Assembly (NCBI GenBank): GCA_001724265.1
Contig: MEDY01000092.1
Coordinates: 1 to 64,000, forward strand
Direction: 5' to 3'
From: Rhizaria sp. SCN 62-66
Taxonomy: Eukaryota
DNA: 64,000 bases
The translations under genes were made by a program, and so were the position numbers. Positions 8,621-53,376 of the stretch are shown here, one piece after another. Numbering within the stretch: the first letter of the stretch is position 1; every line of letters begins with the position of its first letter. Under the pieces are notes generated by a model. It saw only the letters and a list, made by a program, of their open reading frames with translations, was not told the origin of the DNA and did no database searches.

Positions 8621-9727
8621 TTACAGTGACATCCCGAGTACAAGCACGGCAAGCACAGAGAGCATCGCAACGCTGCCGGCAAGCACGGCGCCGGCACTAG
8701 CGCTGTTGCAGCCCTTGGTGGAACAGAGCTCGCAAGTGCCCGTTGCGATGAGGTCGCCGAGAGTCGTCGTGCGTGCGTTCAATGTAAACTAAAGCAGAAA
8801 CAGAATCGGCAGCCCGAAAAACACATTGTGAGACTCAAGCAATGGCAATAAATGATATCGTGAAACGAACATGTTCTAAACATTAAACTTAAGAGAGTGA
8901 GTTCCAGTAAAATGAATACGGCAACGTACATTAGAATTATAGTCAGGGCGCGTCGCGTTACCACAGTTGATCACAAACGCCTGATCCTTTGTCAACATGG
9001 TGTCCGACGCAATCTCAATCGACAGCTTTTGCGTCGTGTCCTCGTCAGCGTCGACAGACTCCGTGTAGTCGCCAATCGTGATGTTGCAGCCCTCGAAGGT
9101 GCCCGCGACAAACTGCGCCTTCCCCGTAAGCGTGTACTCGAAGTAATAGCCCTCGCCGGTGATGTCGGTGCCAAGCCCGCCGCCCACGGCCACCTTAAGC
9201 GCACCGCCGCCAGAGCCGGTAGTCTTGTTCTTGCGCTCAGTCACCACCGCGGCGGTGAGCTTCGAGACGTCGTAGGGCGCAATAACGGTGACCGTGGGCG
9301 TGGCGAACGTGTCGGCGTCGAAGCGGATCGCGGCGGGCAGAGACACGGGCTTGTCAGTGGTACGCACGGTCTCGCACTCAACCGTCAGCACACCGCCCGA
9401 GCTCGGCGTGACGTCGGCAGGGACAGTGAGCGCGAGCACGCCCTCAGCAATGGCCGCAAAACCCGCGGCGGTGTCGCCAACGGTGCATGAGATCGGGAGG
9501 CCGCCGGACGACCAGGCTGTGCCACCGGCGGCGACAGGGAGATCGACCTCGATCGTGGTGTCCTCGGGCGGCGCGGTCTCACCGATGTCAAGGCGGATTG
9601 TCAGTCGACCGCCGGTGTTGACAACGCCGTAGCTGTGGGTAATCGTGGTCTCGGCGGAAGAGAGCGCGAGAAGAGAAGCGACGGTGAAGAGCAAGGCCGG
9701 AAAGGCGAGGGAGCGGAGGAACTTCAT
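8621..9727 (-). CDS. Predicted GPI-anchored surface protein, 321 aa; exons 8930-9727, 8621-8788
   Basis: Signal peptide MKFLRSLAFPALLFTVASLLALSSA and a Thr/Gly-rich, beta-strand-like body. After the GTACGT...TAG intron (8789-8929) it reads CELCSTKGCNSASAGAVLAGSVAMLSVLAVLVLGMSL then TAA: small omega-site residues followed by a hydrophobic tail. Confidence 0.8.
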
Positions 9728-9867
9728 CGCGGTGATGCAAGAAGAGCGGGGTAGCTCTGACTCTGCATATAAATATTTCAGAGTTATAAAAACAGAATTA
9801 AAGTGTTAACGTTGTGTACAACAATAAACGTGCAATATTACAGCACATGACGGTGTTTTGAGTTCAC

Positions 9868-13585: not shown

Positions 13586-15920
13586 ATGGATTTCGACCCC
13601 AACACGCCTTTCCCCACCGGGTACGTCCTTCTAAAATGTTTTACACTTCTGTGGCTTCCCTGTCTGACGCCAGCCCCAGTGCGCACCCTCTCTGAGCCAC
13701 TTCGAGGAGGATGTGGTCATCGCGGGCTGTGCCTCAAGCGCTCTATAAACGCTTGTCTACAGCAATAACGCCCCACTAACCACACTGTTCATGTCATTCT
13801 GTGTATTCTGCGCCCGGTGTAGGTTGGTGCAGCCGAAGTATACGGCGCCCATGATCCTCTGTTGCGGCTGCGGCGTGAGCATCCAGTCGAACCCGGCGAA
13901 CATGTGCGCCCAGTGCCTGCAGTCGCGCGTCGACATCACCGCGGGTATCCCGAAGCAGATCACCATCTTCTGGTGCCGCAACTGCCGCCGCTACCAGCGC
14001 CCGCCGTGGGAGGACGTCGAGCTTGAATCGCAGAAGATGCTCTCGCTCTGCCTCAGCAAGATTAAGGGCCTCAACAAAGAGGTCAAGCTCACCGACGCCG
14101 CCTTCATCTGGACCGAGCCCCACTCGCGCCGCATCAAGGTAAAGCTCACCGTACAAAAGGACGTCTTTAATGGTATCATCATGCAGCAGGTCTTCGTCGT
14201 CGAGTTCGTCGTCGGCAACATGCAGTGCCCCGACTGCGAGCGTTCCTTCACCGAGCACACGTGGAAGGTCTGCGTCCAGGTCCGCCAGAACCGCAAGCAC
14301 AAGCGCACGCTCTTCTTCCTCGAGCAACTGCTCGTGCGCCACAACCTCTGCGCCAACACCACCGATATCAAGGAGCTCACCACGGGTCTCGACTTCTACT
14401 GGGACAAGATGTCGCAGGCCAACAAGCTCATCGCCTTCCTGCGCTCCGTGCTGCCCGTCAAGATCTCCAAGGCCGGCGAGAAGCTCATCTCGCAGGACGA
14501 CAGCAGCAACACCAAGAAGTTCAAGTTCGGCATGCACATTGAGATTGCCGAGGCCTCGAAGGAGGACGTCGTCATGGTCGACCGCCGCATCGTCTCCGCC
14601 ATGGGTACGTCTTGAACTCAACAAACGACTGTATATATCTCTTGTTACAACGCCGAAATTATCGCATACTATGCATTTCTGTTTTGTTTCTATTATATTT
14701 TTTGTTTTTCATGATGCATCTCTCATATATTGCTCCATAACCCTCGTTCTGTGCTCTTTTTTTTTCGCACTTTACTCACAGGCGGTGTGTCGCCGGTTCT
14801 GCTCGTGTATCGCGTGTCCAACACCGTGCACCTGATCGACCCTGTGACCCTGAAGACGTTCGAGCTCGACGCGCGCCACTACTTCGCGCACCCCCTCCGC
14901 ATCCTGCTTACCCCCGAGCAGCTGACCGAGTTCATCGTCATCGATGTCGACGTCATCGGCGACGAGAGCGTCAACATGCACGGCCAGCATCACCTGAGCG
15001 CCAACACGCGTGGCCAGTCGCTGCAGACGGCCAACGCGGCCCGCCAGCGCGCCGGCAACGTCCACAACGCCGCCCACAACAACAACCGCTACAACTCCGG
15101 TCTCACGGGCTTCAACAAGCAGACTGCGTTCAACGCGCGCATCGTGCTGGCCGAGGTGACCGTGGCGCGCTCGCACGAGATCGGCGAGGAGGGCGCGATG
15201 ATCGTCTGCCGCACGCACCTCGGTGCGGTCCTCAAGCCCGGCGACACAGTGCTCGGCTACGACCTCGCCAAGCGCAACATCATGGGCGACGTGCAGTCGA
15301 CGTTGCGCGCGCGCGACCTCCCCGACATCATTCTTGTCCGCAAGACGTTCCCGCACCGCACCAAGCGTGCGCAGCGCCGGCTGTGGAAGCTCAAGCACCT
15401 GGCCAAGACTGCGGCGGACTCGGGCGCGAGCCTCAAGAAGCGCGCTGTGCTGGCCGCCAAGGAGGAGGAGGAGTACGAGCGCTTCATGCAGGACGTCGAG
15501 GAGGACCCCGAGATGCGTGCCAAGATGAACCTGTACCGCCGCTACGAGACGGACGAGGAGGCCGTCAAGGCCGGCGCCTTGAAGGCCGCCGCCGCCGCGA
15601 TGGGCGACGACGCGGCTGCTGCAGTTGCGCCCCACGACGACGACGGTGACGACGACGACGGGTTCCCCGAGGTGCGCATGGAGGAGCTGCTCGACTCGCT
15701 GCAGCAGCTTGCCGTCGACGACGACGCCGCGCGCGCCGCCGCCGAGGGCGGCCACGGCGAGGAGAACGAGGACGACGACGAGGAGCTCATCGGCGCCGAC
15801 GACGGCTACGCCAGCGCGCCCGTGCAGAAGGTCGAGACGGGCCGCGGCGTGCGCAACAAGGCGCGCAACGCGCCCGCGCGCTCCGGCGGCTTCGACGACG
15901 ACGAAGACGCGCAGTTCTGA
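13586..15920 (+). CDS. NMD3: 60S ribosomal export adaptor NMD3, 651 aa; exons 13586-13620, 13823-14604, 14782-15920
   Basis: Motifs CCGCG...NPANMCAQC, CRNC, DAAFIWTEPHSRRIKVKLTVQK, CPDC, VQVRQ...HKRTLFFLEQL, RTHLGAVLKPGD and an acidic tail with NES-like MEELLDSL. Two GTACGT introns. Stop TGA. Confidence 0.96.
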
Positions 15921-16453: not shown

Positions 16454-19400
16454 ATGTCTCATCGACGGAACGACCCAAGTGTCGTTAATGCTGGTGGGGC
16501 ACATGCTGATGGACTATATGTCTCTCTAAGCGACTTTCCCTATGACCGGCCACAGAAGGTACGTCTCTCTTCTCAACATCCGCCTTTCACAGCTATATCT
16601 CTGTACAGCGCCCACGTTCTGAATTCTACGTATTGTATGTCTATAGATCGCAACTGTTTTTACCGCAACCTTAACTTTTTTGTCTTTACTACTGTTATAT
16701 ATCTTGCTTCTAGACTTGGTGCCAGAGGAATGGCAAGACAACTTTGATTGGCGTACTCGCCGTCGCCCTTGTCGCCGTCATCGCGACCACGGTCGTCTAT
16801 TACATGTACGTGCAACGCACCCAATCAATTATATTGCGACATTGTATCTTGATGTGATGTTATTCTGTGTGCTGGTCGACATTTCAGCGCACTCTGCCTC
16901 ACTCCTCTACCCGACCACAACCTCGTTCACCTTCAATTGCACGTCACACCCATGCATCCCGTCCCAAACCCGCCCGTCTTTCGCTTCGGATCACTCCCGC
17001 ACAGCACTCACAAGGGCAACTCCGACTCCGGCTTCCAGGTCGAGCCGCTGTACCTCGTGTACAACGCCACGATCTACACTGGCGACCCGCTCGACCCTCA
17101 CTTCACGACCTTCGAGACCGCGGACGACGCCGCGACGCTCGCAGCGCAGGCGCTCTTGCGGCAGCAGCTGCTGGCCCGCAGCGACGCCGTCGCCGCGCTG
17201 TCCCCGTTCCGGCTCGAGCCCGTTAGCCCGCTGGCGCTCGCTAACGCCACCGCGGCCGGCGCAGCTCTGACGTCCTCTATGTCTCACGGCCGCAGTCACG
17301 TGGGTCACGGCCACGGCCACAGTCTCTCCGTCACGGCTGGCGCTGTTGGCGCTAACCGCAATGGCGGGCTTTTGCGCGCGCCTCTGGCCTGGACCGCGGC
17401 CGCCGCGGCCCCCGAGGCATTTGTGGTGGGCTCCGACGGCCGTTTCCTCGCCGTCGGCACTCTGGCGGACCTCACCAAGGCCCACCCGGACATCCCACGG
17501 CTTAACTTGCACGCGCGCACGGTCGTCCCGGGCCTCGGCGACGCGCACGGCCACCTAGCGTCGCTCGGTATGTCGTTTCTCTCGCCGCTGTTCCAAGACG
17601 CCAAGTCGCCCGCAGATGTGGTGACGATTCTGCAGCGGTTCGCCGAGAAGCACGAGCTGAACCCGCAGAAGGACCCGGGGTTCTTCCTCATCGGCTCCAA
17701 CTGGGACCAAAACGACTGGACCACCACCGATGCCGATGCCACTGAGGACCACCCGTTCCCGACCGCGGCGGACCTCGACGCCGCGTTCCCCGTGCTGCCG
17801 CTGGTGCTGGAGCGCGTCGACGGCCACGCCGTTTGGGTCAACTCGGCCGCCATGGCTATCGTGGGCCCGATCCCAGACGCTGACCCGGCCGGTGGGCAGA
17901 TCGTGCGCGACCCCGTGACCGGCAAGCCCACGGGCGTGTTCCTCGACGCCGCCATGGCGCTCTTCTACGACCACCCGTACGCGGAGATTGCGCCCGACCA
18001 GCGCGCGGCGGCGCTGGAGCTGGCCGTGGCGGCGGTGGGCAAACAGGGGCTCACGCAGGTGCACGATGCCAGCATGCAGCTGGACGACTTCCACATCATG
18101 CGCGCTCGGCTAGTCAAGGGCCGCGAGGCCGCCGACCCCGCTAAAAACAACCATAGCAACAACAAGAACAACAAGAACGCTAAGGACGCGAACACGGGTA
18201 ACACTGCTGAAAGCAAGGCCGCTGACTCTGCTTTGCCCACGGGCGCCCGCGTCAGCGACAGCTTCCCCCTGCGCGTGCACGGGCTGTTCGAGATGGAGGG
18301 CGTCTGCGGCACCGCGGACGGCGGCTACGACTGCCCCGCGGGGTACCCCGTGCGCGACCTCGACGCCGCGCAGTCGCTCGCGGCGATGCTCAGCCAGTCG
18401 GGGCTGCACGAGCGGAAGCTGCGCAAGGAGAAACACGGCCACAGCCACAACGACGTCGTTCTCAACAGTGTCCACCATGGTGATGGCTCCAAGCACCGCC
18501 CGTCTAAGGGCCTCCGCGCGGCGTCCAAGGGCGGCGTCAAGGCCAGCGAGAGCACCCTCGAGGACCTGGACCTGCCCCTGGTCATCGGCAGCGCCAATGG
18601 TCGTCTCTCGGCGGCGGCGGTGAAGCTCTTTGCCGACGGCGCGTTGGGATCCTGGGGCGCTGCGATGCTCGAGCCCTACACCGACAAGCCAGAGTCACAG
18701 GGACTGCTGATCTACACGGCCGAGGAGCTCGCCACCGCAGTCGCCGCCGCCGTCAAGCGCGGCTTCCAGGTACGTCATCACACACAAAACTAGTAAAATC
18801 TCCGCGTTTGATAATATTTACTGATTGATTTTAAGATGACACGTTTATAACTTGCTTACATTCTGATAACTCACATATTATATTCCTATTTTTTGTAAAA
18901 CTTCACCCACATCTATCTGGTTTATTTCTTCATTTCGCTCTCTCTCTCCCAGGTCTGCACGCACGCAATCGGCGACATGGCGAACCGGCTAGTGCTCAAC
19001 TCGTACGCCACGGCGATCGCCGACGACGAGGCCTCGGGCGGCGCGGGCCGCGTGCGGCGCCACCGCATCGAGCACACGCAGATCATCGACGCCGACGCGG
19101 ACCTGCCGCGCCTCGCGCCGCTGCACGTCCTAGCCTCGATGCAGCCGACGCACGCGACGTCGGACATGCGCTATGCCGAGGCCCGGCTTGGGCCCGCCCG
19201 CCTCAAGGGCGCTTACGCGTGGGCCTCCGCGTTGGCGACGACGGGCGTGCTGCCGCTGGGCACCGACTTCCCGGTCGAGGCGCCCGACACGATGCGCAGT
19301 TTCCACGCCGCCGTGACACGGCAGAACGAGGCCAGCGAGCCCGCGGGCGGGTGGCTGCCGTAGCAGAAGCTCACGCGGCGCCAGGCGCTGCGCGGGATGA

Positions 19401-20204
19401 CCTGGGACGTGGCCTTCGCGGCCGGGCGCGAGCTCGAGCAGGGCTCCATCGCGGCGGGCAAGACCGCCGACTTCGTCGTGCTGGACCGGGATATCATGAC
19501 GGTGGCCGCTGAGGACATCCTGGGGGCGAAGGTGATCGCGACATTCCTTGACGGCAACGCGGTGCACGTGCTCAAGAGTACCGAGGCCGCCGCTTCGAGT
19601 GATCTTGTTGGTGTGAACGGACAAAAGGTGACGCTGGGGGCGCTGGCCGAGGCGCGGCGCGCTGGCAAGGCCCTCTGCTGGAGCGACATTGACATGGTAC
19701 GACGCTAAACAACCACGCTAAACAACCTACTATTTAGCTCTAAAAGTAGTTTCGTAGTTTAAAATATCACGCTTACATGTGTCACTTTATTTTCATCTTC
19801 ATCGCTCACACATATGCGTGATATCTCCGATGTTGTTATTATTACAGGTCAACACCCTGAACGGCGCCGTCGCGCCCGCTCGCGGCCACCTCGCGCCCGC
19901 CCCGGTCCCCGCCCCTGCGCTCACAGCGGCCGCTGCCGTAGACATGAGCGCCGAGGCGCGGTACATGCTACTGCGCCGCAGCGGCAGCCGCAACGGCAAC
20001 AACAACGGCAACAACAACGACAAAGCTTTCAGTGGCAGCGGCGCTGGTGCTGCTGAGTCTGCCGGTGCGGCGTCGGGGATGCCCGGGAGGCGCGAGCCGC
20101 CGTGCATGCAGCACTGGCCCGTGCTGGCGAAGCTGGCCGCCCGCCAAAGCCGCTCCCGCGCCAAGGCGCTGCTGCACCCGCCGCAGCAGGCGGACCAGCT
20201 GTAA
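16454..20204 (+). CDS. Amidohydrolase-3 (YtcJ/LAF3-like) with N-terminal membrane anchor, ~1020 aa if the in-frame TAG is read; exons 16454-16558, 16714-16805, 17005-18769, 18953-19696, 19848-20204
   Basis: Motifs PGLGDAHGH, RVDGHAVWVNS, KLFADGALGS, HAIGD, RIEHTQ, SMQPTH, GTDFPVE, GGWLP[TAG]QKLTRRQALRGMT and GSIAAGKTADFVVLD. Exon 2 encodes TM helix LIGVLAVALVAVIATTVVYY. The exon-3 acceptor and the last exon are less certain (alternative TAA at 19706-19708). Confidence 0.88.
19361..19363 (+). other. In-frame TAG within the conserved amidohydrolase C-terminal motif; candidate recoded codon
   Basis: TGG CTG CCG TAG CAG AAG CTC ACG. Conserved motifs continue in the same frame downstream. Confidence 0.9.
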
Positions 20205-20822
20205 AGAAGGCTCCGTATGTTTGGCGGCGTCAATTTGGGTGAATCGTGATGAAGCGATGTGAGCAAATTGACGAAATATCGTTATTTAGTAAGTTTGTTC
20301 TTGTTTTGGACTGAGATAAATGCACTTGAAAAAGAAAAGTAAGCAATACAACAATATGTAAGATCTACTCTCACAATGCAACATAATCAAGAAGAACAGG
20401 CAATGCGTCGGATTGTATTCCTGATTGGCACAACGCGTCCTGTCATGCTCATGATATGACATGATTAAGATGGTGAACATGGGAAAACGTAAACGTTGTA
20501 TGTGTAAACTTTGTATGTGAATTTGTAATTATAAAAGAAAAAGCTATGGTGAGTCGTACATTGTCTCACAGCAACACAGAAAATGAGGGTGTCTTGATTG
20601 ATGTGTAAACACGGAAGACTAGTTATACTAGTATTCGTAAATACGTGAGGATTACGAAAATATGATATTAGTCGATATTATTTGTCATGATATTAGTTGT
20701 CAATCGTTGACACACACACAAAAAAAAAGACATGTAATGCAAGTACATCGATACCCTTCAGACATAAAACTGAATAGGGTCTAAAAAAAACACGGGACAT
20801 CCCATCGCACCACTTGGCTACT

Positions 20823-23800
20823 TTACTTGCTGGGCAGCGCAGCTTCCTTGACGCAAGCGCCGTAAGCGTCGCCAACAACTAGGATAGCAAACCGCTCCAC
20901 CTCCTTCAACTTCTTGGTTGACAGAGACACGTAGTCGAAGCGGCCGCGTAGGTCCGTATAACCGTCCTTGTAGAAGTCAATATCACCGGTCTTAAGCTTG
21001 GCGAAGCATTTGACGTATGCGCCAGACAAGGGACCAAACACGCGGGCCGCGCCCTCGCCCTTGGCGGCGGTGACCTTAACCTGGCCGACGGACTCGACGA
21101 CTTGAATGAACATGGAGTGCGCGTAGTGGGTCGCAGTGCGCGCGCGGGGAAGCGTCGCAGACGTGACCTACACAAGAAGATATGGTAACATCGTGATAAG
21201 TTATGAATGAGCTAAAAAAATAAATATATAGATATATATATAAGCTGATTACAATGAATGTAGTGCGACATTAAAATACAGTTGGCTGACGCTCATTTCT
21301 AAATCAAGACGTTAAAAAACAACGTGTTGTACTCGTACCTGAATGTGAACGTTGGCGGTGGCGAACTTGGCAGGGACGGCCACCATCGTGACGCCCATAA
21401 ACCCGTGCTCAGCGGACGGCACGGCGCCAGTGAGATCAACCTTGAGTGCATGGTTCGGCGCAACAAGAGCGAACTTGTCCATCTCACCAGAGATGAATGG
21501 GCTGGCCGAGAAGAGCGCTTCCAGGTCCATGAGGTGGAAGCTCACAATGCAAGACGCCAGATTGGCGTGCACAAGCTTCAACGACAGCGCGGCGCCCGCA
21601 GCGGCACCGGCTGACTTCTCGACTGTGAACTCGAGCTGAGGCTCGGTCGAGGCGAGCGCGTCCAGCTCCTTGGTGCGGTTGGAAGCGCGTACCTCGGCTG
21701 ACGTGTTGTCCTGTGACAGAACACCAGATGTAAGCACGCACGCCCCAATTCCGGCTGCAGGGCCAGCGAAAGCAGGCACACCGTTGCCGCCGGCACCACC
21801 GTCAGCGGCAGCGGAAATCGTCTCGAGTGCCTCGTTCACGTGCGCCTTGACGTCAGCAAACATCTTGCGCCACATACGAACAGGGTAGGTAGTATACTTG
21901 TCTGCAATAGCAATGGCGCGCGCGGCACCGGCGCGCAGCGCAGCGGCGTCTCCGCAGTTGCCTGGTGCAAGTGAGAACATGTCGAAGTATGCAGTGAGAT
22001 AATCAAGCTGCAATCCCACGCTATTGTCGTCGGCAGCGCTGTCGCTCGCGTTGTTCGCGCTTGCAACAGTGCGGCGGGCATCAAGCATTGCGAAGAGCTT
22101 CTTGGCCTCCGGGATGCGGTCCTGCAGCAGCATGTAGTACACTGCGCTCATGAGGTGGCGCGTGGAAATATTCTCGCGGCACGAGCTTGCGTAGACCAAG
22201 TACTGTAAGAATTTGACATACTGCTCGCGGAATTCCTTGTTCTGGATCTTGTGTCGACGCTGGACGCCGCGCGCGAGGTCGAGATCTAATGCCGTCGTGG
22301 TAACCTCGTGCGCACGCTCATTAATTAACGGCAGATACTCAAGGTGCCGATAGACATTGACTGAGGGCGCAAATGCGTCGCTGGTAAAGCCAGGAACAGC
22401 TAAGTAAGGGCCAGTGTTGCGGTAGTCATAAGAGACCGAGAGACTCGGAGATGCTATCCACTCATTCATAAGCTTGTGCATCGTCGGGCACCGAATTGAG
22501 CCGCCAGCCTAAGTTGAAGAAATATACAAAGCCAAGTAACGTTAGCACCTACTTCGAATAAATATACAACTTGACATAAAATTTCATGGCAAATATTCTC
22601 AGAAATCATTTACTCAAATGCTTGAGTCCATCATAGGTGTTTCTGCTTACCTCGCGAATTGCGTGAACGGCGTAACCCCAGATGTCGCTGCTGTAGTAGT
22701 TAGCAGCACGAAGCGCTTCTGTGAAGCGAATCAAAAATGTGGGGTTGCCGCGACAACGGAACGCTGCCTTGCAAGGCTTCACGGGGTTGCTGAAGCGTTC
22801 ATTGGCTGGATCAGCGAAGTAAGCAATAACTTCATCATCAGAGCCATCCTAACATAAGCAAATAGTTTAGTGCGTCGCATCATAGATACGGACATGCATC
22901 AGGAAATTGTTAGCCATATTTGTGTTAAGTCATAGTTTTCGCTCATTATTTGTGGAAGCATAAGCCTATGAAAGGAAATTTGTTCATATTTTGTTACATA
23001 TTAGACGCTCATCGAAGATAAAGACAGTGGAATCTTAAAATCAATCAATCATTTGCATAATGTTCGTACCTCAGCAATGGAATCCCACAGCTTAGCGTTA
23101 GGGAGGTTAGTCAGCGTAGACACAACAGTGATGATGTTGGGCAAGCCGTAACTGACAACCACAGTTCCCTCCTCCCTAATCTGCGATACGTGCATGGGGT
23201 AGTGCCCGAATGAGCCCGCTGCAGGGAAATAGAAAAAGTACTCGGCCACGTATGTTTGAAACCCATCAAGATGAACTAACTCCGTTTTTGTGCGGAAAGA
23301 GTTCAGTACACACTTGATGTTGACCCTGCGGTTCATCTTGCCAATGCTGATCGGAATCGCGCCGTTAGGAATCTGTAAATGCAACGCGCACTTCTGCGGT
23401 TTCATCGTCGCGTTTGTGACTGCAACGCGGCAACCGTACGCTTGTTGCAATAACATCTCGTTCTTCATCACGCCCTCCTCATAAAGCGACCTTGGATCGA
23501 AGTAAGCTTGAGCGACAAATATGCCGCTGTTTTCGCCCGCGTCAGCAATGCGCGTCTCGCGGACCTCCTTGTGCAGCACAAGCATCGGTGCCGGTGCAAC
23601 AAGTTCTGCCTCGCCATTGGACAACAGCTTGAAGAAGCTCGACGCGTTGCCCGGAGGCGCATCTGCAGGAAGATCAGTGACCGCAAATGCCAAGACTATG
23701 CTTGTAAAAGACTTATCGGCTAGAGATAAAATGTTAGATGATAAGAACGGCTTTAGAGCACCCTTCCCGTCGTTTTTCTCGATGCTAGCAAGATGTGCGG

Positions 23801-25529
23801 CCCAGTCGCCCCAAAAGGAAATTGGGTAAACAAGATTCTCAGACATGATAGCGTTCCTGCTAGATGAAGTAACGTCATAGTACTCGCGCTCCTCATACTC
23901 ACCAGCCATCTCGGGCGCAGGAGGCACCCAATGCGGCTTGTGCGCGGCACCCGCAGCGGCGCTCTCGGCCGCGGACTCAAAGCTCACTGGCGTACGCAAA
24001 CGTGCTGCAGTCTTGGACTTAGCAACATTAGAGCCGTTCGTCGGCGTCGCCATCAGAGACATCTGAGCAAACGGGGGGGAAATGGGATATCAAAATAAAA
24101 TGGAAATAAAAATACAAATTGCAAATTAGTAAATCATGGTAATATGAGCAAATTAAATCGAAATGAAACAGAGAGATTAGCGCGCGATTTATGCTACCGT
24201 GTGCTCATGTGCGTTAGGTTGCGATATATCAATTATAGATATAACACGTTGTTTCTGATTCGTGTCCGACGACGTACTGCAGAAGAAGGGTGCATAATCA
24301 CGGGAGCCGGCGGTAAGGGCTTGGGGGGCGCGCAAGGTGGCGGTGGCCGGGAAGTGTGGGAGCTCATCATCCAGCTGGGCATGTTACAGAAACCTTCGTG
24401 GCGTGATTGGGAGTTAGCGGGAGGCGGCACCTCCTCGTCATCGTCATCGTCGTCACCCAAATAGTAGTCGTCATCATCGCCATGGTTGGCGTCAGCAACT
24501 GCAGCGTTATTGTTCTTCTTGTTCCTGCGCGCGTGATTTCGAGCCTTTGCGTGAAGCTGCTCGGTTGTGCTTTGTCCCAGTGCCAGCGCGCGGGACTGCA
24601 TCGCGAGCGAGAACACGTGATTGACATCGCATGCGGCGTTGGACAAGGCACCGCGAAGCACGCGCGCAATGTTCTGCAGTGCAGCGGGGCCCGTGGCATG
24701 AGCAACAAGCACCGTCTCAAAAGCATTCATGCGATTGGAAGCTAAGAACGAAGAGCAGCGTGTCGGTAGAGAAGCCCGCGCAGCGTCGCCGAGCAGGTAT
24801 AGGTCAACGACGGTCTTACGGAAACGATTACGGATATGTGGTTTAACGACGCAATTGAAGAAATCAGAGTCCTTAAAGTAAATAAAGACATTTAGTTCGT
24901 GCGACATAAACTTGCTGTACTTATCTTCCTTTTCCGCCCTGGACATCGAATTCCAGCGTGGGAGCCAGGAAAACGCCGCGAAGAGAGCTGAGTTGTTCCC
25001 ACCGTCAATCGTCCGGAGCAACTCCCAGAGCTCGCTCAGCGAGGAAAATACCTCAACACGTGCGGACAAGGCATCAGGGATGGGAAGAGTGTCGCCTGCG
25101 GTGGACAGCGCAGTTACCAGACTCTGCTGCGTGTAATGCTTGTGAAGGTTCAATGTGGCTGACATGCGGACGTCAATGCATCCTGCGCTCATACTACCAT
25201 CTCCCGCTGCAGTTGACATAGGCAAGATAGTTGCCATACGCGTGAAAGCTGTCGTGTTGTCAATAGCAATCACAGCAAGCGTAGTGTGGTGTACACCAAG
25301 AGCGGAGCGACAAATGGTCACGCGCCCGTTAGCATCCGGCTTCAGATTCAGCAGACGTGTCGAGCTCTCTTTCAAAAACTCGACTGAGTGGTGGGCATCA
25401 GTGTCTTGATCGTCATAGCTGTACCGTCCAGCGTTAACATGGAAACGCGCAAGCTTTGTGTTTGTGATAATCTCACTCTTATTATCGCTTTCGCCGGAGT
25501 ATTTGCTGTCGTCGTTGTCGTCGTTGTCG

Positions 25530-25560
<31 letters not shown>

Positions 25561-28500
25561 TGTCGCGGGTGTCGCTTGTGTAACCGCTGTCGGTCGCGGT
25601 TGGCGGGACGACTAGAACGGGTTTTTTTGTCATCACCCGTGTCTTGCCGGCCTTGCGCATCATTATCTTTGAAAACGTACTCGTCGACTGTTTAAACCTC
25701 TTTGCAAGAAACATCGTCGGACGCGTGAGCATGTTGCCAACGCGCTTGGCAGCGCGTGTACGGTCCAGCACATACTGTTGCTCTCCAGAGAGTAGACGCT
25801 GCGTGAGGTAGTCGTGCTCTGCTGTTGGCAGTTGCATTGTTCGCGCATTGTCCAGCAGGACAGGCATCAACTCAGCAAACTCATTATCTGATGGCATGAA
25901 ATGTGATGAGAACACATGCACACGCGTGGAGTTGCTGATAGAGCCAATCTGAATGACGATATCGCTTTCAGCAGAAGCAACAGAGTTGCCGTTACTCATG
26001 CTAGCAGGAACAGCAGTCCCTGAGATCAAGCCGACACTCAGAGATGTGCCGTAATCGGGGAGCAGCTGATGCATTGCTTTATCAGCCAGCACATAAGACC
26101 CCATCACGCGCTGATTTGCAGGAAGCACACGCACAACGTGGCGAATAATAGCACTCGTCGTCGGATCAGCACTCGCACTGTCTACGTACATCAACTCATA
26201 CTCACCCTCAGTGAGGTTATTCAGCACGACGTGACCATTGACACTATCTAGCGATGCGCAGCGGATTAATTCGCTCTGCACGTACACACCAGGGCTCGCC
26301 TTGGCCATTTGTAGCAGCGAGAAAGCCGCCGGCGAGAGAGCCGTCTCAACACCCATGTAGGGCACGCGAACAGCGGTGCCCACCTCGGCACGGATCTCTC
26401 TCACAACATTGGTCGCGACCTCTTTGCTGGCGGAATAGTCGATGGAACAGTGAGAGGTCGCGCATGTCACTTGGACCAAGGTCAGATCATTGATATTGGC
26501 AATAAAGACACGACCTTCAGCATCGGTAAGGAGCCTGCATGTCTCTTCTGATTTGGCAGAGCGATGACGTGCCCGCACTATGAGTTGTTGCAACGGAAGT
26601 GGCTCGCCACCCTTGCCAACCAGAACAGCAATAAGCCACACTCCAGTTGGGTTACAGGGGTTAATCTTGTGCGCTGTGTTTGTAGTGTCTCGGCGCAGGA
26701 AAATCTGGCGGGTGCCGAGCTCCGCGCGTTCAATTGCATTAACCGTGATCGTATCGCTATTTAGCAATAGTACTTCCTCAGTCCCGCGTATGGTGACCAC
26801 AGTGACCGTGAGACAAAAAGTTAGGGATGCAAGATCAGCAGGGACTGAGAACTTGTGGATCGCCTCACAGTCGCTGCCCGGGAGCGCAAAGTCTTCGACG
26901 ACCTGCGTGGTGTCGACGCCGGCGGCATCAGTTGCCTTGATCGTAAACCGCACGTCCTGGGTGTTCAATACAACACCCGAGGGTAGCGCGTGGCCGTTGC
27001 GGCGGAATATAGGACGCACAATAACCTCAGCGACGGCCCGCGAGCGCAAGGCCTCGCGGGAAAGCGCAAACCCGCCTTCAAGGGTGTACTTCTCGGGCAT
27101 GTGGGTAAAGCTCCCAAGGCAGGAGAACGAATCACCGATGCTTGCGTCCAAAGAGCCCATGGGTGTCGCAGCGGAGTCCGATGTGATAACAATGGGGCAG
27201 CTGGGTACGCGTGCATCATTGTAAGGCACGATAATAAACCCGCTCCCAGTGTCCGCGACAAACGTGCGAGTACCCAATGTGATGCGTGCGTCCTTGACAT
27301 GCTCACGCGCCTCGTTAAACACCGCGAAAGCGTGGCCCGCCGACGTGGAGTGCTCGAGAAACGTCAGCAGGCCCTTGCGGACAACGGCGCGCGCAGCCTC
27401 ACCATTGCCTTCAAGCTCGATCACAAAAAGGCCGCGCTGGCCGCGCAACGAGTCGATTGTGAAGGTTTTCTCGACGCGCGTTAGCGGCGACGCGGCGGAA
27501 AAGTCGAATGTGATCGTCTCGTGTGGGATGAGGCCATCAAGTTCGATTTGGGCGTCAAAATCCTTGATGTGCGTCGTGTAATACGCGGTCGTGTTAATGC
27601 GGTAGATCTTGAGGGTGACTGTAGGCACGTTCTTAATAATCGCGTGCAGAGTGACTGGAGCGAGAACAGCCTCGGGGGTGCAACCGAGGAGGGCGTTGTG
27701 CGGCGCCCAAACCAGTTCCGCTAAGTCGGTCGAGACTATATTTGTGTCTTCCTATGAAGGTGAGAAAATTATCCACGAAAGGGGGAAAAAGTATGGAGTC
27801 AAATTCGAACAAATTTTGCGACAGTTGAAAGTGTTGCGCCAGTATGATCTCAAGATATTATGGTACGCCTTCGGAACTGACGTACGTTGAGGCGCGTGGC
27901 AACCCAAGATGGGAGAGGTAGAAGAGACTTGTACGTGGCGGGGTCAATCGGGGGGTGATGAACGCGCGCCTTCAGCAAGGCTGCCTCCAGAACGTCATCA
28001 TCAAGAGTCCCGCTATAGTGACCGAGCGATGATGCGGAAAACTGATCGTAAGGTTGGCGACGGTAGTACTCGATCAAGTACGGCTCAGTCACATCCTACA
28101 AATAAAATTACATTTAAAAAAATATAGCAGTATATATTCATGTTGGTAAGCAATGTAACACACGCACCCGCATTTAAACATCGTACTAGTCACTCTTTCT
28201 ATCATGATACGTCGAACGAACGACCACCATGATGAGGTGCAATAAAACATCCAGGTAAAACGTACGTCAAAATCGGGATGAGGAATAGACTCAAAGTTAT
28301 TCGGCTTGACGATGATGTCCTCATTGATTTTTGTTTTCCGGTTGATGAATGGTTTGACCGCGGCATGGTTGAGGGCAATCCATGTGTCAAACCACGCAAA
28401 GTTGTACTTCCCATCGCACTCCAGCAGCAAACGCATACACCAGCTCATGAGCGTTGACGCCACCTCACCACACATCGAGTTTAACGCACGTCGACTCACA

Positions 28501-29756
28501 TCGTGAGCAAACGCGAACACACGAGTCAGCATATCGAGGCGTGCCTCCTGTGTCGTGCACTCATCGGGACGCGGGGCGGAGCCGAACTGAGTGACAAACT
28601 CACAGACGATGAAAGCCTTCTCAGTGCGCACGCGCGGTACAGCCTCAGCAACAGCGCTAAGCTGATCCGCCGTCAGAAGAAAGTCGACAGCGCGGCTGCC
28701 GAAGACTCGCTCAGCGCCTTTCATCTTCTCTGGGTTCACCCATTTGAGCGAACGGATCACAAGCGAAATCATTCCGGGGTGTGCAGCAAAGTTCGTATTG
28801 CTCTATCAAGACGTACAATGCCCAGGTAAACGAAATAAATAGAGCACGGTGTGAGGAAGTGAAGGAACGACCATCGACGGTTAAAATAAAAATAAAAATA
28901 GGATGCCATTCACACTGCCAGCTGGTCATTTGTCAGCTGGTCCTTGATTTTAGGAACGTACGAATAAACTGGTGATGACCTTGTCAACGTTGTGATCAGA
29001 AATGTTGGCGTGGTTGTCAAGCAGATATGGGATCGACGCCTGATCCAGATCGAGATCCTCCTTGGCAGACTGTAAGATGCTTTGCTCAATCATCTCTGAC
29101 CGCTTCCACTGAAAGACTGACGATGATTTGGACTCGGCCATGCGCAGTGCGGATGCGAACGAGTTGTCGTCAGTGAAGCTGGTACACTTAGCAGACTCCT
29201 TGTTGTGGTCCCAGTTGCACAAGTTGGCGAAGACGTCGGAAATGATCTGCACACGACGCTCATCGGATGCTGAGGAGAACTCAAGCAAGGCTGACCGGTA
29301 GATCATTGATATCGAGGATGAATAACCGTGCTCATTACGAGAGCGCATCAAGTTAGTGAAGGCCTCATATGCCGTGTTAGAGAACTTTCCTTGCTCCTGG
29401 CACTCGATCTGCTCGACAAGGGCCTTGTGAAATAGATTCTCAACTGAAATCCAAACAAAATGATTATCGAATAAGAGCAGGATCGAGACCATAACAACCA
29501 AAAAAAAGGGGTGAATCGTATGATGTAAGATGCAATGGTCCCCTTAAAAGCTCGTAAATTGTTGACAAAGACGTGGGATAGCCGTGACAAGTATCCTAGT
29601 TGAAGGTAATTGCTATTGTAAGGAGGGGTCATGAGCTGACATACCTGAGTTAGGCAGAAATGCGGCATCGATGGCAGCGAGACGGTCTTCAGCAAAGACA
29701 ATCGCTTCAAGAGCAAAGACGTCGTCGCAGTAAAATGGATGCAGCGACCCTGACAT
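20823..29756 (-). CDS. Giant conserved protein of unknown function, 2506 aa; exons 29645-29756, 28962-29443, 28266-28802, 27886-28095, 24278-27751, 23070-24062, 22651-22848, 21339-22508, 20823-21167
   Basis: Nine exons join in frame through eight GT-AG introns with no internal stop. Motifs YVKCFAKLKTGDIDFYKDGYTDLRGRFDYVSLS, YRHLEYLPLINERAH, EYFFYFPAAGSFGHYP and SHELNVFIYFKD recall, from memory only, a family of ~2000-aa proteins in some bacteria and protists. Stop TAA. Confidence 0.8.
25506..25565 (-). repeat. Coding GACAACGAC / GAC tandem repeat (Asp-Asn-Asp run)
   Basis: (gtcgtcgtt)n on the plus strand; encodes DNDDDDDNDDNDDNDDNDD. Confidence 0.85.
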
Positions 29757-30494: not shown

Positions 30495-33400
30495 TTACGC
30501 AAGCCCCGGCAGTGTGTCACGGTGCAGGTTGCCAGTGCTGTACTCGGTCTTCTTCGCCGTGCGCCGCACATACGTCGTCACACTCACCCCGCCGCCCGAG
30601 CTGCCCACGCTCGCGTTTGCACTCGCATTAGCGTTGTTATTCGACGAAGAGCCCGCACCGCCGGAGACGGGCTGGACGGTCGTGACTGGCACCAGCGTCG
30701 TGGGCAGCGTCTGCTGCGACAGCTTCGCGTTCGGCAACGAAAACCGCACCCTGGAGATGAGGTTCCTGAACTTGGCCATGTCGCCGTACACGCTGCCGGG
30801 CCCGCCAGGCGCGAGCCTGCGGAAGGCGCCCAGGCGCGCGGGCATCTGGCCGAAAAGCCGCGGCACGCGCCCGCGCAGCAGGCGGTGGAAGTGCGCGTTG
30901 AGGCGCTCGTCGTAGCTTGCATCGGGCGAGAGCCCGGGCGGGACGGGCCATGCGCCCTCGCGCGCGCGCGCCGCGAGCATGTGCGCGAGGTATGCGCGGT
31001 CGAACGGCAGCGGGTCGACCATGGTGAGGATGTCGGCCAGCAGCTGAGGCTTCACGGCGCGGTCGATGCTAGTGTTGAGGTTGAGCGAGGGCGACGCGTT
31101 GGCCTCGATCACCCACGGCTTGAGCTTCGAGTCGAGCATGACGTCGAAGCCGAAGAGCTCGAAGCAGTTGGGCTGCGGTCCGATCTTGTTCTTGACACAC
31201 ATGAGCGTGCGGATCACGACGTTGTCGATAGACCGCATCACGGCGTCCGTGTCGACGCCCAGCGCGGCGAGGTCGGCCAGGCAGTCCGACAACAGCTGCT
31301 TCGAGCCGCCCTCCTGCTCGAAGGCCGCGATCTCGGCCGTGGTCGGCGGCGGCGGCGGCGGCGGCGCAAAGAACTCGCCGTCCCACTCGCCCTCAGCCAC
31401 CGCCGCCGCGGCAGCACTCGCGCCTGCAGCGCTGTTGCTGCTGGTGTTGGAGTTGCTCGCGGTGGCCTGCAGGTGCGCGATACCGGCGTCCTGCCGCTGC
31501 GCCGCCAACTGCAGCAGCAGCGTGCGCGAGCCCACCACAGTCGCGCCGAGCACGTTCGTGGTGAGGTCCGAGACGGTGTGCACGGCTGCCGGCGACTTGG
31601 CCGCCGCGGTCGCCAGTACGCTCGCGCTGAATGCAGACGACATCGGGTCGCCCGCAGCCGCGCCAGCGCCAGCGCCAGCGCCGGCGCCAGCGCTACCACT
31701 CGCGATCTCAGCGGGGGTGGCGCCGGTACTGGCAGCCGCGCGGGGGCGCGCGGCGTTGAGCTGCATGCCGCTGGCGCGCTCGATAAACGCCAAGCCGCGC
31801 TCGACCGACGTCGGGCCGCTCGCACTGGCGTTGGCACTGGCACCGGGGCGCCGGCCGGCGAGCGACTTGGCTCCAGAAGCGGCGGAGCGCTTGGCGGTGG
31901 GGGACGCGACCTCCTCGTCGTCGTCATCGTTCTCGTCATCGTCGGGCTCGGAGTCGCCGCCGCCGCCGCCGTTGCCGCCGCCGCTGTCAGTGCCCTTGTC
32001 GAAACCCTGCCCGATGCTCGAGTTGGTCAGGTGGATGAACGGGTCGTTAAGCGACTCGGGGTCGGTGCGGTACGGGCGCATGGCGTAGCGCGCGAAGCCC
32101 TCGTTGTAGATGAACGCCTCGAGGGGCTCGAAGCTCGTGACGACGACGTAGAGACGGAAGTCGAACTTGCGCTTGTACATTACGCACGGGTCGGCGATGT
32201 ACTCCTAGAGTGAATTGCACAAAAAGCAAAAATTGATAAAGATATACAGTTATATGAGCATGGAGATAGAAAAGTGATCGAAAAGATGTACGAATCATGC
32301 CTTGCGCCTTCGATCAAAAAATCGGTTTGATTCCCATTTCTGAAGACAGCATTGACAAATCTGTGATTCAGTGATATTACATGTTACAACGTACCTGAAC
32401 GACTGCGGGGGCGCCCGAGTGCGGCATGTGGGCGAGCTTGTTGGTGAGATAGATGCCGCGGCCGCGCGACGAGTTGATCGGCTTGATGATCCACACGTTG
32501 CGTGGGGACGGAAACGGCGGCACCGCAGCGGCGACCGCCGTCGCGCTCGTCAAAATGCGCACTGTGTTGCTGCTGTCACCCGGCGCACTCACACTGGCGT
32601 TGGCGCCAGAACTAGAGGAGTTAGGACTCGTTGAGCTCTTGTTCTGGCCCATCGTGCCGTTGCTGTTGCTGTTGTTGTTGTACGTCCACGAGTACTCGCC
32701 GCCGTACAGCGCGTTGGCCTGCGCCATATCGACCCGCAGCGGCAGCGCCAGACCGAGGCTTTCGACGTCCTCCGCGGTAAGCGCGGCGGCGTTCGCAGCA
32801 GAGTTGGAGAACTTGAGCGCGGACGTGGAGTGGACGGCGTTGTTGGTCGCGTTGTGTTTGTCGACCTTGCGCAGCAGCGCGACGAGCTTCGCGAGCAGTG
32901 GGTTACTGGCGAGACTGTCGGCGTCATCGCGCGAGCCGTAGCCCTCGCTGGCGCTCTCGCCAGTACTGCCCTGCGCCCCACTGCTCTTGGCGTCAACACC
33001 GCTCGCGTTGGTAGAGTGTGACTGCGAGCCGAGCTGAGCCGCGAGCCCCAGGCGGACGCCCCACTCCTCGGCGCGCAGGATGACGTCGCGATCGTAGTAA
33101 CGCTCCAGGAACGGCTGCGCGGCGAGCGGGAGCGTGAAGGTGCGCGGGATAAACTCGAACCAGCGCCGCATCACGGGGGATCCCTCGCAGAGCTTGGCGT
33201 AGCGTGAGATGTTGCGCGACAGCATCGCTTTGCGCGTGAGGTTGCACGAGCGGGAGAAGTGGTTCACCTTCTGGAACGCGAGCAGCGGCGCGGTGTCGAG
33301 CGGGGAGTGGCGCCACGTCCAAAGCAGGTTCCAATACGCGTTGCCGGGGGTACCCAGGATGGCGAGTAACGCGGACGGGGGCGTTTGCGACGACACCACA

Positions 33401-36400
33401 GCAGTCGCAGAACCGGTACTCGAGCCATCGGCGTTACTGCTGTTGCTGTTGCTGTTGTTCAAGCTGTGCGCGTTGAGCGGCGAGTAGTCGCTGTTCATCT
33501 TGACGTCCTTGTTGAGCAGCGTGACGATAGGCCGCGGCGTGGGCACGTACGGCATCGTCGCCGGGTCCAGGCACTGCGACCACGGCAACAGCGGGTACTT
33601 GGGCGCCGTCACCGGTTGCGGCAGCGCGCATGCCAGCGCGCCACACAGCGCCAGCGGCAGGGGGCCTGTCGCCGCGGGCGCCTCGGTGCTCTGCTCGCTG
33701 CCGTCGCTTATCGCCGCGCCGCTGCTGCTGCTGTTGTTGCTGGTGTTGCTCGTGCTGTTCGTGTGCACGTTGTTGGTGACGAAGCTGTGCGTGCGGGCCG
33801 AGTACGCGCCAAACCGCGCCGGGGCCTGCGACTGACCGTGGGCAGCACCGGTACCGGCAGCGCTAGAACTCGAGGCCGCGGCAAACGCGGCGTCGGTGCC
33901 CGCTTCGATCGCCTTGGCGACGTGCAGAAAGCGCTCAGCGTTGAAACCCACATGCACAGCGTCACTGCCACTCGCGGCCGCGGTCGCAGCAGCAGTGGTC
34001 GTGCTGTTGCCGCTGTTTGCAGTGACGTTTGTGGCGTGCCTGCGGTGGATCGCGCTCACGGTCGATGCCACTGCGCGCACGTTGGCCGAGTGCACCAGCG
34101 ACACACGCGTCTGCGTCAAATGCAGCAGCTCCGAGACCGCAGCCGGCGTGGCGACCGCCTCGGCGGCCACGGCGGCGGCCAACGCGTCCTCGGTGTCGGC
34201 ATCGTCGTCGTCGCCCCCATAGGCAGTCCCACGCACATCGCTGTTGTCGCCGTCGTTATTGTGGCTCGATAAGTTGGTTTTGGCCTCGATGGTGGCCCGG
34301 CCGAGCTCGAGCGTCATGAGCTCCTCGGCTTCGCGCCGCGCCTGCGCGTTGATGCGGCCGATGGCGAGTTGCATCGCGGCCCACACCTCGGGCTTCTCGG
34401 CCGACACGCAGATGTACAGCCGCGACGGGTCCCAGCGCGCGGGGTCCAGGTGACTCAGCGACGCCAGCGAGGACGGCACGACCGCGCCCACGGTCGAGTC
34501 GTACCGGGCAGCGGAGGCGGGGCACTGCGCCGGCGCCGGCGGGGGAAAGAACGGGTCCAGCGCAGCCGCGATGCGCGCCTCAGTCGCAGACAGACTGGAG
34601 TTCAAACGCCAAAAGATGACAAAAGATGAGATAGATATGCGTGAGATTAAGAATTGTTGATGCTAATGATTGAAAATAGTTAAACAGCCACAAATTAAAT
34701 GGTTTCGTTTAGTATGATGTCATATTCTAGAACATGCGACGATCACTCATAAACACACGTACCGAGCAGCAGCAGCCGTAGCGTTCGCGGCGCCCGCCGC
34801 GGCGGTCTTGTCGGCCGGCGAGAAAGACAGCGGCAGCGGCTGCGCAGTGAGGATGGTGGTCGGGTCCGCCGGCAGCCGCAGCGCACGCGCGGCCGCGGCG
34901 GGCAGCGTCCAGCCCGCTTTGGCCGCGGTCGCCATCGCCAGCGCGTGGGCCTCCTTGGGCTGCAGCGAGTGACCGTGGGCGACATGGGTACCCGCGGTGC
35001 CGGCAGCACCCGTGGGGGGCATCAGCGCCGCGACGGCTTTGTTTGGGGGCGCCGCCAGCGCGGGGCTCGCGGCGGCGGCGGCGGCGACGGGGGCGGTCGA
35101 TGGGGGCATCATGTCTACCCAGGGGTCCGCGATGCCGTGCAGCGCGGCGCGCCACAGCGCGGCCTCCTCGGCCGGCGGCAGCGGCACGATGCGGAGCTGG
35201 CGGCAGAGGAAAAACATCACGGCCAGCGGGAGCGCGGTGGACGACACGGGTGTCGTGGTGGCAGCCGCACTCGCGCTCGCGGTGGCGGTGGCATTACTAG
35301 TCGTCGTCGCGAGGGCGGTGCTCGCGGTCGTGGTGCGGGTGGTGACCGCGGGGGTCGCAATCGCGCCCTGGGAGCCTGTGGGCGCCGAAGTGTTGGCGTT
35401 GAGAGTAGTCGCATTGTTGCTGTTGTTGTTGGACACAGAGCGGGTGGAGCGAGGCACCGGAAATGCCTCCGAGTCGACCAACGGCGCGCCCGCCAGCGCC
35501 GCGGCCGCTGCAGCGCCAGTGCCAGCGCCCGCGCCCGCGCTTGAAAGCGAGAGTGGGGAGTTGAACATGGGGCCGTCGCGGGAGAAATCGCCACTGCTGC
35601 TGCCGAGAGTGTTGCTCGGGCTGGGGTCAATGTCACTAATGGGATTCGCGGTATTAGCGAGATTGCCAGCGCCGGCAGTCGCGGTGGCGAAGGGCGACAG
35701 CGCATTCGCGGTCGCGGCGTCGTTGCGGTCGTCGTCATCGTCGGTCATGCCGACTGCGGTCGAGCCCTTGCCCGCGAGGTTGGCCTGGGCAGCGGCCGCG
35801 GCAGCAGCGCCCGCGAGGAACGTCGCCGTCGCACTCGCGCCAATCGAGCCAGCACTCGCGCCGCCCGCAGCAGCGCCAGCAGTAGAGCTGTTCGCGCTAC
35901 TGGGGTTGGTCGTGTTGCTGCTAGTATTGCCGGGCGGGGGGGAGTTGGCGCGCCGCGAGCTCAGCCGGCCGCCCTTCCAGCCCGCCATCGCGGCGCCGAC
36001 GCGGACAAAGTTGACCCAGCCCGAGACGGCAAACGCGGCGAGCCTGAGCGCGGCGGCGGTGCGGGCGGCCGAGAGGGGCGCTGAGTAGCGCTGGCGGAAG
36101 AGGGCCTGCTGGGCGAGCTGGCAGCGCAGCGCGGCGCGCAGCGACGCGTGCAGAGCGGGTGACGGGGGGCACGTCCAGGGGGCCGAAAAAAGAAAAGTTT
36201 CCGAGGGGAAATAGGCCGGGTACAGCAGAGGTGCAGTCGACATCACCGGAACACTAAACGTGAAAAAGAAGAATATACGGGATATAGCACAAGATGTGAG
36301 GCGCGTGTGATAGAATGAATAAAAAAGTCAAGCAATAGCCTGAAAATCGTATTTTGTGTGGTGACGATACAATAAACATCTCTTTGATTGCGATATAGCG

Positions 36401-37922: not shown

Positions 37923-38379
37923 CAGCGGCGGGGGCGAGCGCAAAAGCGCGGCAGGAAAGTTAAATGGTGCGTTGAGGGGGATATACAGGCGTGGAGGTGT
38001 GGTGCCGGCTCGTGCAACTTGGAACAGCGAAAGATGCGAGACGAAGATTGTGGTGGAAAGAGGGAAGATCGGGATATGTGGGAGTGAGAGACGGGTGGAT
38101 AATATACAAAGTAGATACGCCTTTTATGGTTCTGTTATTTCGCTATTCTCGTTGATTGTGGTGAGTTGTTCAAGAAATGGGTTGAGAGTGGACTGGATGA
38201 CTGGATCCCACGCCACAGGCTGCGGATACACGGATAACAAACGCGGGCAGCATAAGAAACTAAAACAAAGTAAAGAGTCACAAGTCAAATACTATACTAA
38301 GCTGATGAGTCGCTCTATGTCTTCTCCGCATCGCACAACATTCGCAAAGTGAGTCTTCACGCACGGTGTGGATGCCCGG

Positions 38380-53339: not shown

Positions 53340-53376
<37 letters not shown>

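Follow-up and report, generated by a model that had tools for sequence, protein, structure and literature searches.

Nuclear genetic codes in which UAG has changed its meaning while UAA still acts as a stop are few, and all of them were found with the codon already in most genes. In Iotanema spirale, which reads UAG as Gln, 204 UAG codons were reported from 126 genes, with UAA, UGA, and UAG as terminators in 104, 15, and 0 cases; for the rhizarian exLh, which reads UAG as Leu, the same source gives 384 UAG codons in 71 genes and 56, 15, and 0 terminators (PMC5304391). For the UAG-reassigned ciliates covered by PMC11687900, in-frame UAG occurs in 78-91% of genes and takes 18-32% of the Gln codons. 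Here we describe the first 64 kb of contig MEDY01000092.1 (assembly GCA_001724265.1, Rhizaria sp. SCN 62-66), referred to throughout as the window. Two different, unrelated conserved genes among its roughly 14 genes, a YtcJ-like amidohydrolase gene and a PUB-like gene, are each interrupted by a single in-frame TAG (TAG no. 1 at site 1 and TAG no. 2 at site 2). We regard it as about an even chance that UAG is a sense codon of very low usage in this organism, with Gln or Glu as its most likely meaning, and that TAA and TGA are the stops.

The amidohydrolase gene is a five-exon eukaryotic gene on the plus strand (16454-20204), with its ATG at 16454 and its TAA at 20202-20204. Under the standard code its frame is interrupted at 19361, where TAG no. 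1 (19361-19363, plus strand) is codon 137 of exon 4 in the frame ...PAGGWLP*QKLTRRQALRG.... The original prediction, made from the letters of the window, had called an in-frame TAG in GGWLP*QKLT, and this was confirmed in one frame. Two eukaryote-like relatives are useful for comparison: L002, a metagenome locus and the closest relative, is probably a cDNA-type contig with an uninterrupted open reading frame (ORF) of 1,580 codons and 71% identity overall (about 75-79% in conserved blocks), and P0002/P0247 is 64% identical. The exons of the gene are as follows.

16454-16558, plus strand: exon 1, 35 codons from the ATG at 16454; the L002 protein matches 16481-16558 in tblastn; GTACGT donor at 16559.
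16714-16805, plus strand: exon 2, a hydrophobic stretch; acceptor CTAG followed by A at 16713/16714; GTACGT donor at 16806.
17005-18769, plus strand: exon 3, the N-terminal half of the enzyme with DAHGH; Pfam Amidohydro_3 profile positions 4-222, 110 bits.
18953-19696, plus strand: exon 4, the C-terminal half of the fold, containing TAG no. 1.
19848-20204, plus strand: exon 5, with the terminator TAA at 20202-20204 and the tail motif PPCMxHWP common to L002.

Exon 2 is a probable membrane anchor, and the start of exon 3 is uncertain, given an in-frame alternative acceptor at 16887 (exon from 16888). Exon 4 is flanked by the introns 18770-18952 (intron 1 here) and 19697-19847 (intron 2). With the TAG entered as X, Amidohydro_3 (PF07969) aligns to exon 4 residues 1-205 over profile positions 278-472 of 472 at 125 bits; therefore, the match passes straight through TAG no. 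1. Both halves (110 and 125 bits) score above the cut-off of 29.7 bits. The motifs that the original prediction had described as intact were all present, with HAIGD, RIEH, GTDFP, and GSIAAGKTADFVVLD in the exon 4 frame and DAHGH in the upstream exon 3. We take DAHGH, HAIGD, RIEH, and GTDFP to be the metal ligands of the amidohydrolase fold (HxH, His, His, and Asp). Residues H4, E40, H41, and D105 of exon 4 are invariant in 18 sequences.

TAG no. 1 is real and not a base-call error. It is contained in L001, a contig of 3,805 bases from another collection that is identical to window positions 18440-22244, and in Logan contigs of runs X2 and X3. X2 shares its study with a possible source of the window, and X2 and X3 are possibly one data set because their figures are identical. 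The TAG is likewise present in a poly(A) metatranscriptome contig of run X4 (18960-19567) and in a cDNA-library contig of run X5 (19290-19667), each with 0 differences from the window. The X5 contig shows the spliced joint 19696 to 19848, that is, removal of intron 2 on the 3' side of exon 4; intron 1, on its 5' side, is covered by neither RNA run. Therefore, the UAG is present, unedited, in processed RNA. These contig-level data drop minority variants and have low depths (3-7), and the depth of the RNA contigs is unfit for ranking expression or testing nonsense-mediated decay. In a separate X4 RNA contig over 18749-19173, position 18771 is followed by 102 other letters and then by 19057, and 13 of 117 bases differ. 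This contig probably represents spliced RNA of a diverged paralogue or of a sister species in the same community.

An artefact is scarcely conceivable, whether as an error in base calling or assembly or as a short intron whose splicing would take out the TAG. At least three studies, RNA among their material, yielded assemblies with the same letters, as did L001, and site 2 is found on seven contigs; the base-call error named in the original prediction as an outcome that would overturn it is thereby refuted at the level of contigs. A second such outcome, the removal of a 51-nt GTG...TAG segment from the RNA, was looked for in the X4 and X5 contigs, which run unbroken and unspliced over it. This segment is GC-rich, unlike the introns of the window, nine of nine examined beginning with GTACG and the five measured having 33-44% GC, and the homologues need one residue at each TAG.

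The same assemblies bear on the proposal that the genome is diploid or polyploid, possibly asexual, and shelters the TAGs as loss-of-function alleles, with a sense codon on the other haplotype; the assemblies would then have captured the TAG haplotype by chance. Heterozygous loss-of-function alleles are common in diploids, and contigs at the depths given above would lose a minority variant. However, every assembly examined has TAG at site 1, and no contig breaks within 31 bases of it in the window, L001, X2/X3, X4 RNA, or X5 RNA. In addition, RNA would be expected to contain less of the prematurely stopped allele, and no intact allele of near-100% identity was present among the listed proteins of 136-434 aa or the listed clustered representatives, which is a weak negative. 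Overall, sheltered alleles appear improbable.

Homologues show what kind of position the TAG occupies. In 17 aligned homologues there is no gap at TAG no. 1 and exactly one residue stands opposite it: D in six, Q in four, E in three, and N, S, A, and G in one each. The orthologous codon of L002 is GAG (Glu), and P0002 has Gln. The site is variable and polar. The earlier expectation that Glu or Gln is favoured here stands in so far as both residues fit; the position is variable without a fixed Glu, and Asp is the commonest residue.

The sequence downstream of TAG no. 1 was compared with that upstream. Against L002, the 211 codons that precede the TAG have an omega (dN/dS) of 0.24 and the 69 domain codons that follow it one of 0.26, so the relaxation of selection that was to be looked for by dN/dS after the TAG is not seen. 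In relative-rate counts with P0247 as the outgroup, the window lineage and L002 have eight unique changes each in the upstream part; downstream of TAG no. 1 there are two in the window lineage and five in L002. Neutral evolution of the downstream part since the split from L002 would predict about four times more changes, and a binomial test gives p of about 0.005 for two or fewer of seven by our estimate. The tail motif of exon 5 is kept, being common to L002 and, more loosely, to P0247, and no further stops or frameshifts were found in the amidohydrolase gene. In agreement with the original prediction, the gene is not a decaying pseudogene, and it is without decay downstream of TAG no. 1. Therefore, TAG no. 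1 is either very young or translated.

Every stop of the window that can be read through between coding-like flanks was then checked. When the 749 stop codons with 20 open codons on either side are ordered by the coding score of both flanks, two TAGs head the list, with TAG no. 1 second by that of its weaker flank; the next candidates are antisense to known genes. The other is TAG no. 2 (minus strand, 7369-7367), which interrupts exon 3 of the PUB-like gene after 37 codons. That a further gene also carries an in-frame TAG suggests a trait of the organism as a whole, whereas the original prediction had treated TAG no. 1 as an oddity of a single gene. The structure of the PUB-like gene is given below.

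7849-7817, minus strand: exon 1, ATG at 7849-7847; donor GTACGA at 7816.
7720-7608, minus strand: exon 2, ending in phase 2; donor GTACGT at 7607; aligns with the N-termini of homologues.
7481-6257, minus strand: exon 3, acceptor CAG at 7484-7482 and terminator TAA at 6259-6257; contains TAG no. 2.

The phase of exon 2 matches the frame of the long exon 3 ORF exactly. The next ATG is about 137 codons beyond TAG no. 2, and the G+C content of third codon positions (GC3) is 0.8-0.9 on either side of it. In a full HMMER search, 16 proteins were detected among 1.84 billion representatives. Twelve homologues were aligned, and the full-length ones are collinear with the gene from exon 2 over the exon junction and TAG no. 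2, which has an invariant HAGF a short way upstream. Exactly one residue stands opposite TAG no. 2 (V, Q, D, and G in two homologues each; E, N, S, and T in one each), and a conserved C-terminal block, common to P0369, lies far downstream. Two further matches are fragments of the window itself; P0368 (56 aa) ends at TAG no. 2 and is recorded on seven contigs from two sources. The predicted fragments P0368 and P0370 are already in public protein collections. The Pfam PUB profile (PF09409) gave no match on the window fragments, and two of the homologues, P0383 and P0378, reach 32.8 and 25.6 bits, short of the cut-off of 34.3, which is why the gene is called only 'PUB-like'.

Two ways of splicing around TAG no. 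2 were rejected. A 9-nt 'intron' GTGAAATAG at TAG no. 2 is at odds with the homologues, 12 of 12 of which keep three residues between F and G, and an acceptor at TAG no. 2 would be out of phase with exon 2.

Across the window, the 22 exon-ORF segments (13,297 codons) contain two in-frame TAGs, no TAA, and no TGA. Pooling the residues opposite both TAGs gives 30 (D 8, Q 6, E 5, G 3, V 2, N 2, S 2, A 1, and T 1), so that Gln, Glu, and Asp make up 19 of 30, and L, Y, K, and W are absent. Both TAGs thus occupy tolerant, variable and polar positions. The credible terminators form a small sample of about 12, only three of which are backed by the C-termini of homologues (NMD3 TGA, PUB-like TAA, and amidohydrolase TAA); TAA is used 9-10 times, TGA 2-3 times, and TAG never. 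As an observation in its own right, TAA ends 9-10 of about 12 genes despite third positions of about 85% G+C, and in 11 of 12 cases the base after the terminator is a purine.

No frameshift, TAA, or TGA lesion was found in the genes checked, and an 'overlap' in the threonine synthase gene is an ordinary intron. Two codon-model scans and an inspection of ORF edges for more in-frame stops yielded only antisense frames, intron acceptors, and non-coding sequence; one of the two models, that trained on the lower-GC gene, discriminates poorly, and short exons were possibly missed. TAGs at the ORF edges 27754, 32207, and 34665 belong to intron acceptors. A scan of contaminated prokaryote genomes for more sequence of the organism found nothing.

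The strongest competitor to translation keeps the standard code and supposes that two independent, very young nonsense mutations, GAG or CAG to TAG in the case of the amidohydrolase gene, were fixed in a near-clonal, widespread lineage. Both genes would then be freshly dead, or partly alive via basal near-cognate readthrough; work in yeast has shown that Gln, Tyr, or Lys can be incorporated at UAG (PMC4150775). Two TAGs in 13,297 codons correspond to the rate of sporadic mutation rather than to that of a sense codon. Under the codon usage of these genes, 67% of single-base nonsense mutations would yield TAG, and therefore the fact that both are TAG discriminates little. The GAG of L002 at site 1 is one step from TAG, the amidohydrolase looks bacterial and may be dispensable, and the assemblies of the organism are mutually identical over 600-3,800 bases, so that a recent mutation would show everywhere.

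However, two single-hit knockouts in about 14 genes would have a chance of only 1e-4 to 2e-3 by our estimate, if 0.1-0.5% of genes carry a lesion, and lesions of the other types are lacking in the genes checked. The downstream count of two against five fits neutrality poorly, the transcript with the premature stop was assembled from RNA in two studies (X4 poly(A) and X5), and TAG is absent among the credible terminators. We put two young mutations at clearly less than an even chance.

Gene-specific programmed readthrough, in which a local signal (UAG-CAR-YYA or a downstream structure) would make the UAGs leaky, had been raised in the original prediction as an alternative on account of the UAG-CAR-YYA context. 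In the terms of the leaky context described in PMC9272376, site 1 has a part of it, with CAG at +4 to +6 and thus C at +4; at +7 to +9 it has AAG in place of YYA. The sequence at site 2 is TAG GGC GAT, which has no motif in common with site 1. The 100 nt after site 1 (19364-19463) give a fold z of +0.63, with 148 of 200 shuffles as good. Known cases of programmed readthrough add an extension; both TAGs here break folded domains, which would make the terminated product useless. The leaky-context explanation thus fared poorly, and readthrough of this kind seems very unlikely.

Several points also weigh against a translated UAG in general. TAG makes up about 0.015% of codons (about 1 in 6,700) and occurs in 2 of about 14 genes. 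It would equal 0.6% of the Gln codons or 0.35% of the Glu codons, and even AGA, the least used of the ordinary sense codons (0.09%), exceeds it four to six times. This usage is 50 to several hundred times below that of the UAG-only cases as described, and the widespread sense use given for ciliates (78-91% of genes; PMC11687900) is not found in the window. One ORF of 4,395 codons is without any TAG, and L002 has no in-frame TAG in 1,580 codons. An unsupported ORF at 8879-9805 on the minus strand is bounded by TAG, the terminator sample is small as stated above, no tRNA or other RNA genes were found within the 64-kb window, and eRF1 is not among its genes. The evidence from RNA concerns TAG no. 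1 only.

Translation of UAG has a low prior, yet the counts would be well explained by a sense TAG of low usage. One possible scheme is that UAG is read by a putative tRNA with the anticodon CUA, classically a mutated copy of tRNA-Gln or tRNA-Glu. An alternative route would combine efficient near-cognate reading with weakened recognition of UAG by a putatively altered eRF1. Both genes would then be translated in full, one into a membrane-anchored YtcJ-like amidohydrolase and the other into a PUB-like protein, and TAA, less often TGA, would be the working terminators. The very low usage (about 0.015%) may mean that a reassignment of UAG alone is at a stage that is early or ambiguous. That the organism represents a new, independent reassignment of UAG alone (UAG = Gln or Glu, with UAA and UGA as stops) at a very early or ambiguous stage is, in our view, slightly short of an even chance.

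If UAG is translated, the organism would be a natural case of the low-usage stage predicted by the codon-capture and ambiguous-intermediate models. TAG gone from the terminators, together with few in-frame TAGs, would be how such a change begins. Standard gene callers would cut the proteins of the organism short, as in P0368 and P0370, and the peptides spanning the two sites would read QNEASEPAGGWLP[Q/E]QK at site 1 and HAGFVK[Q/E]GDR at site 2. If both TAGs are fresh knockouts, the finding is ordinary.

The window is eukaryotic in character, with a coding GC3 of about 0.85 and introns and spacers of 33-44% GC. The introns begin with GTACG in nine of nine examined (seven GTACGT and two GTACGA) and end with YAG; the donor consensus is unusually rigid and may be of use in binning contigs of the organism. 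Their lengths are 96-183 nt in the six worked out, and their GC content of 33-44% in the five measured compares with about 65-70% for the exons. The donors are located at the following positions.

5158, 14605, 16559, 16806, 18770, and 19697, plus strand: intron donors.
7816, 7607, and 27885, minus strand: intron donors.

The window also encodes threonine synthase, NMD3, Ebp2, a CENP-S-like protein, and an ARL2BP-like gene. For NMD3 (13851-15920, plus strand), a sister-species orthologue, P0122/P0243, has 82% identity over 545 columns and confirms both the intron from 14605 to about 14780 and the TGA terminator. No named sequence is closely related to NMD3, and its named matches are scattered over supergroups. 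A quick NMD3 tree groups it first with sequences from the environment and next with Paulinella, a 'Ploeotia' transcript, and an MMETSP transcript (SH-aLRT 96). This gives a hint that the organism belongs to Rhizaria, a placement that is unreliable in a single-gene tree. The organism is an uncultured protist without a close sequenced relative, and DNA of the window turns up in several studies, in runs from bioreactors, wastewater, and activated sludge.

Three further genes on the minus strand were observed. An intronless ORF of 4,395 codons (46201-59385) has ABC transporter domains in its last 1,900 or so residues, and its first 2,500 or so are without a Pfam match. A tubulin-tyrosine-ligase-like gene (30498-38123) has at least four exon-ORFs and about 2,450 codons, with its TTL profile split by the intron 32205-32379. 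A multi-exon gene at 21315-29543, without a Pfam match, has a lower GC content (GC3 of about 0.6), unlike its GC-rich neighbours, and at least one extra short exon (28095-27886) between the ORFs first listed.

As to the family of the amidohydrolase, the nearest homologues of its C-terminal half are bacterial and YtcJ-annotated (55-58% identity), with Bacteroidota, Rhodothermales, and Gemmatimonadota among those named. In contrast to the bacterial YtcJ-like enzymes, the window gene has four introns, an N-terminal hydrophobic anchor, low-complexity inserts, a C-terminal tail, and the TAG. Despite its bacterial nearest named relatives, its introns are spliceosomal, its inserts are rich in Asn and Lys, and its tail is conserved; it looks like an old bacterial transfer into a eukaryotic lineage. 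In L002, the corresponding loop contains about 700 inserted residues, among which His, Ala, Asp, and Arg are abundant. The solved structures 3IGH and 3ICJ, which are uncharacterised hydrolases, are weak sequence matches (E = 9e-8 and 3e-7) and share Pfam Amidohydro_3 with both halves of the window gene.

Near-cognate suppression of UAG is normally low-level and insufficient to keep two conserved genes functional. Such suppression, as reported for yeast in PMC4150775, would insert Gln without a dedicated tRNA, and site 1 has C at +4; near-cognate reading could be the mechanism if eRF1 reads UAG poorly. With the TMV-type UAG-CAR-YYA context as given in PMC9272376, site 1 shares UAG and CAG; YYA is absent, site 2 is unrelated, and both stops lie within domains. 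A young unitary pseudogene or fixed nonsense allele likewise has a single premature stop in an intact, transcribed gene. The window differs from this in having two such genes in 64 kb, no other type of lesion, no relaxation, and no TAG among the credible terminators.

Among reassigned codes, NCBI table 6 (many ciliates, Dasycladales, oxymonads, and Amoeboaphelidium protococcarum) agrees with the window in that Gln is a likely meaning of TAG. However, codes with UAR = Gln read TAA as Gln as well, according to PMC5304391, and table 6 is inapplicable because TAA is the main terminator in the window. As far as Iotanema spirale, exLh, and the phyllopharyngean ciliates (UAG = Gln or Leu) are described in PMC5304391 and PMC11687900, UAG occurs in conserved genes at positions aligned with a residue, with UAA as the main terminator, UGA as a minor one, and UAG never terminating. 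The two TAGs of the window are likewise aligned with a residue, and its terminators point the same way, in a sample too small to decide the matter. It would be unusual among the UAG-only cases for its GC-rich coding sequence. If UAG is a sense codon here, the organism would be a new member of the small UAG-only nuclear class, set apart by very low usage of the codon as well as by GC-rich coding.

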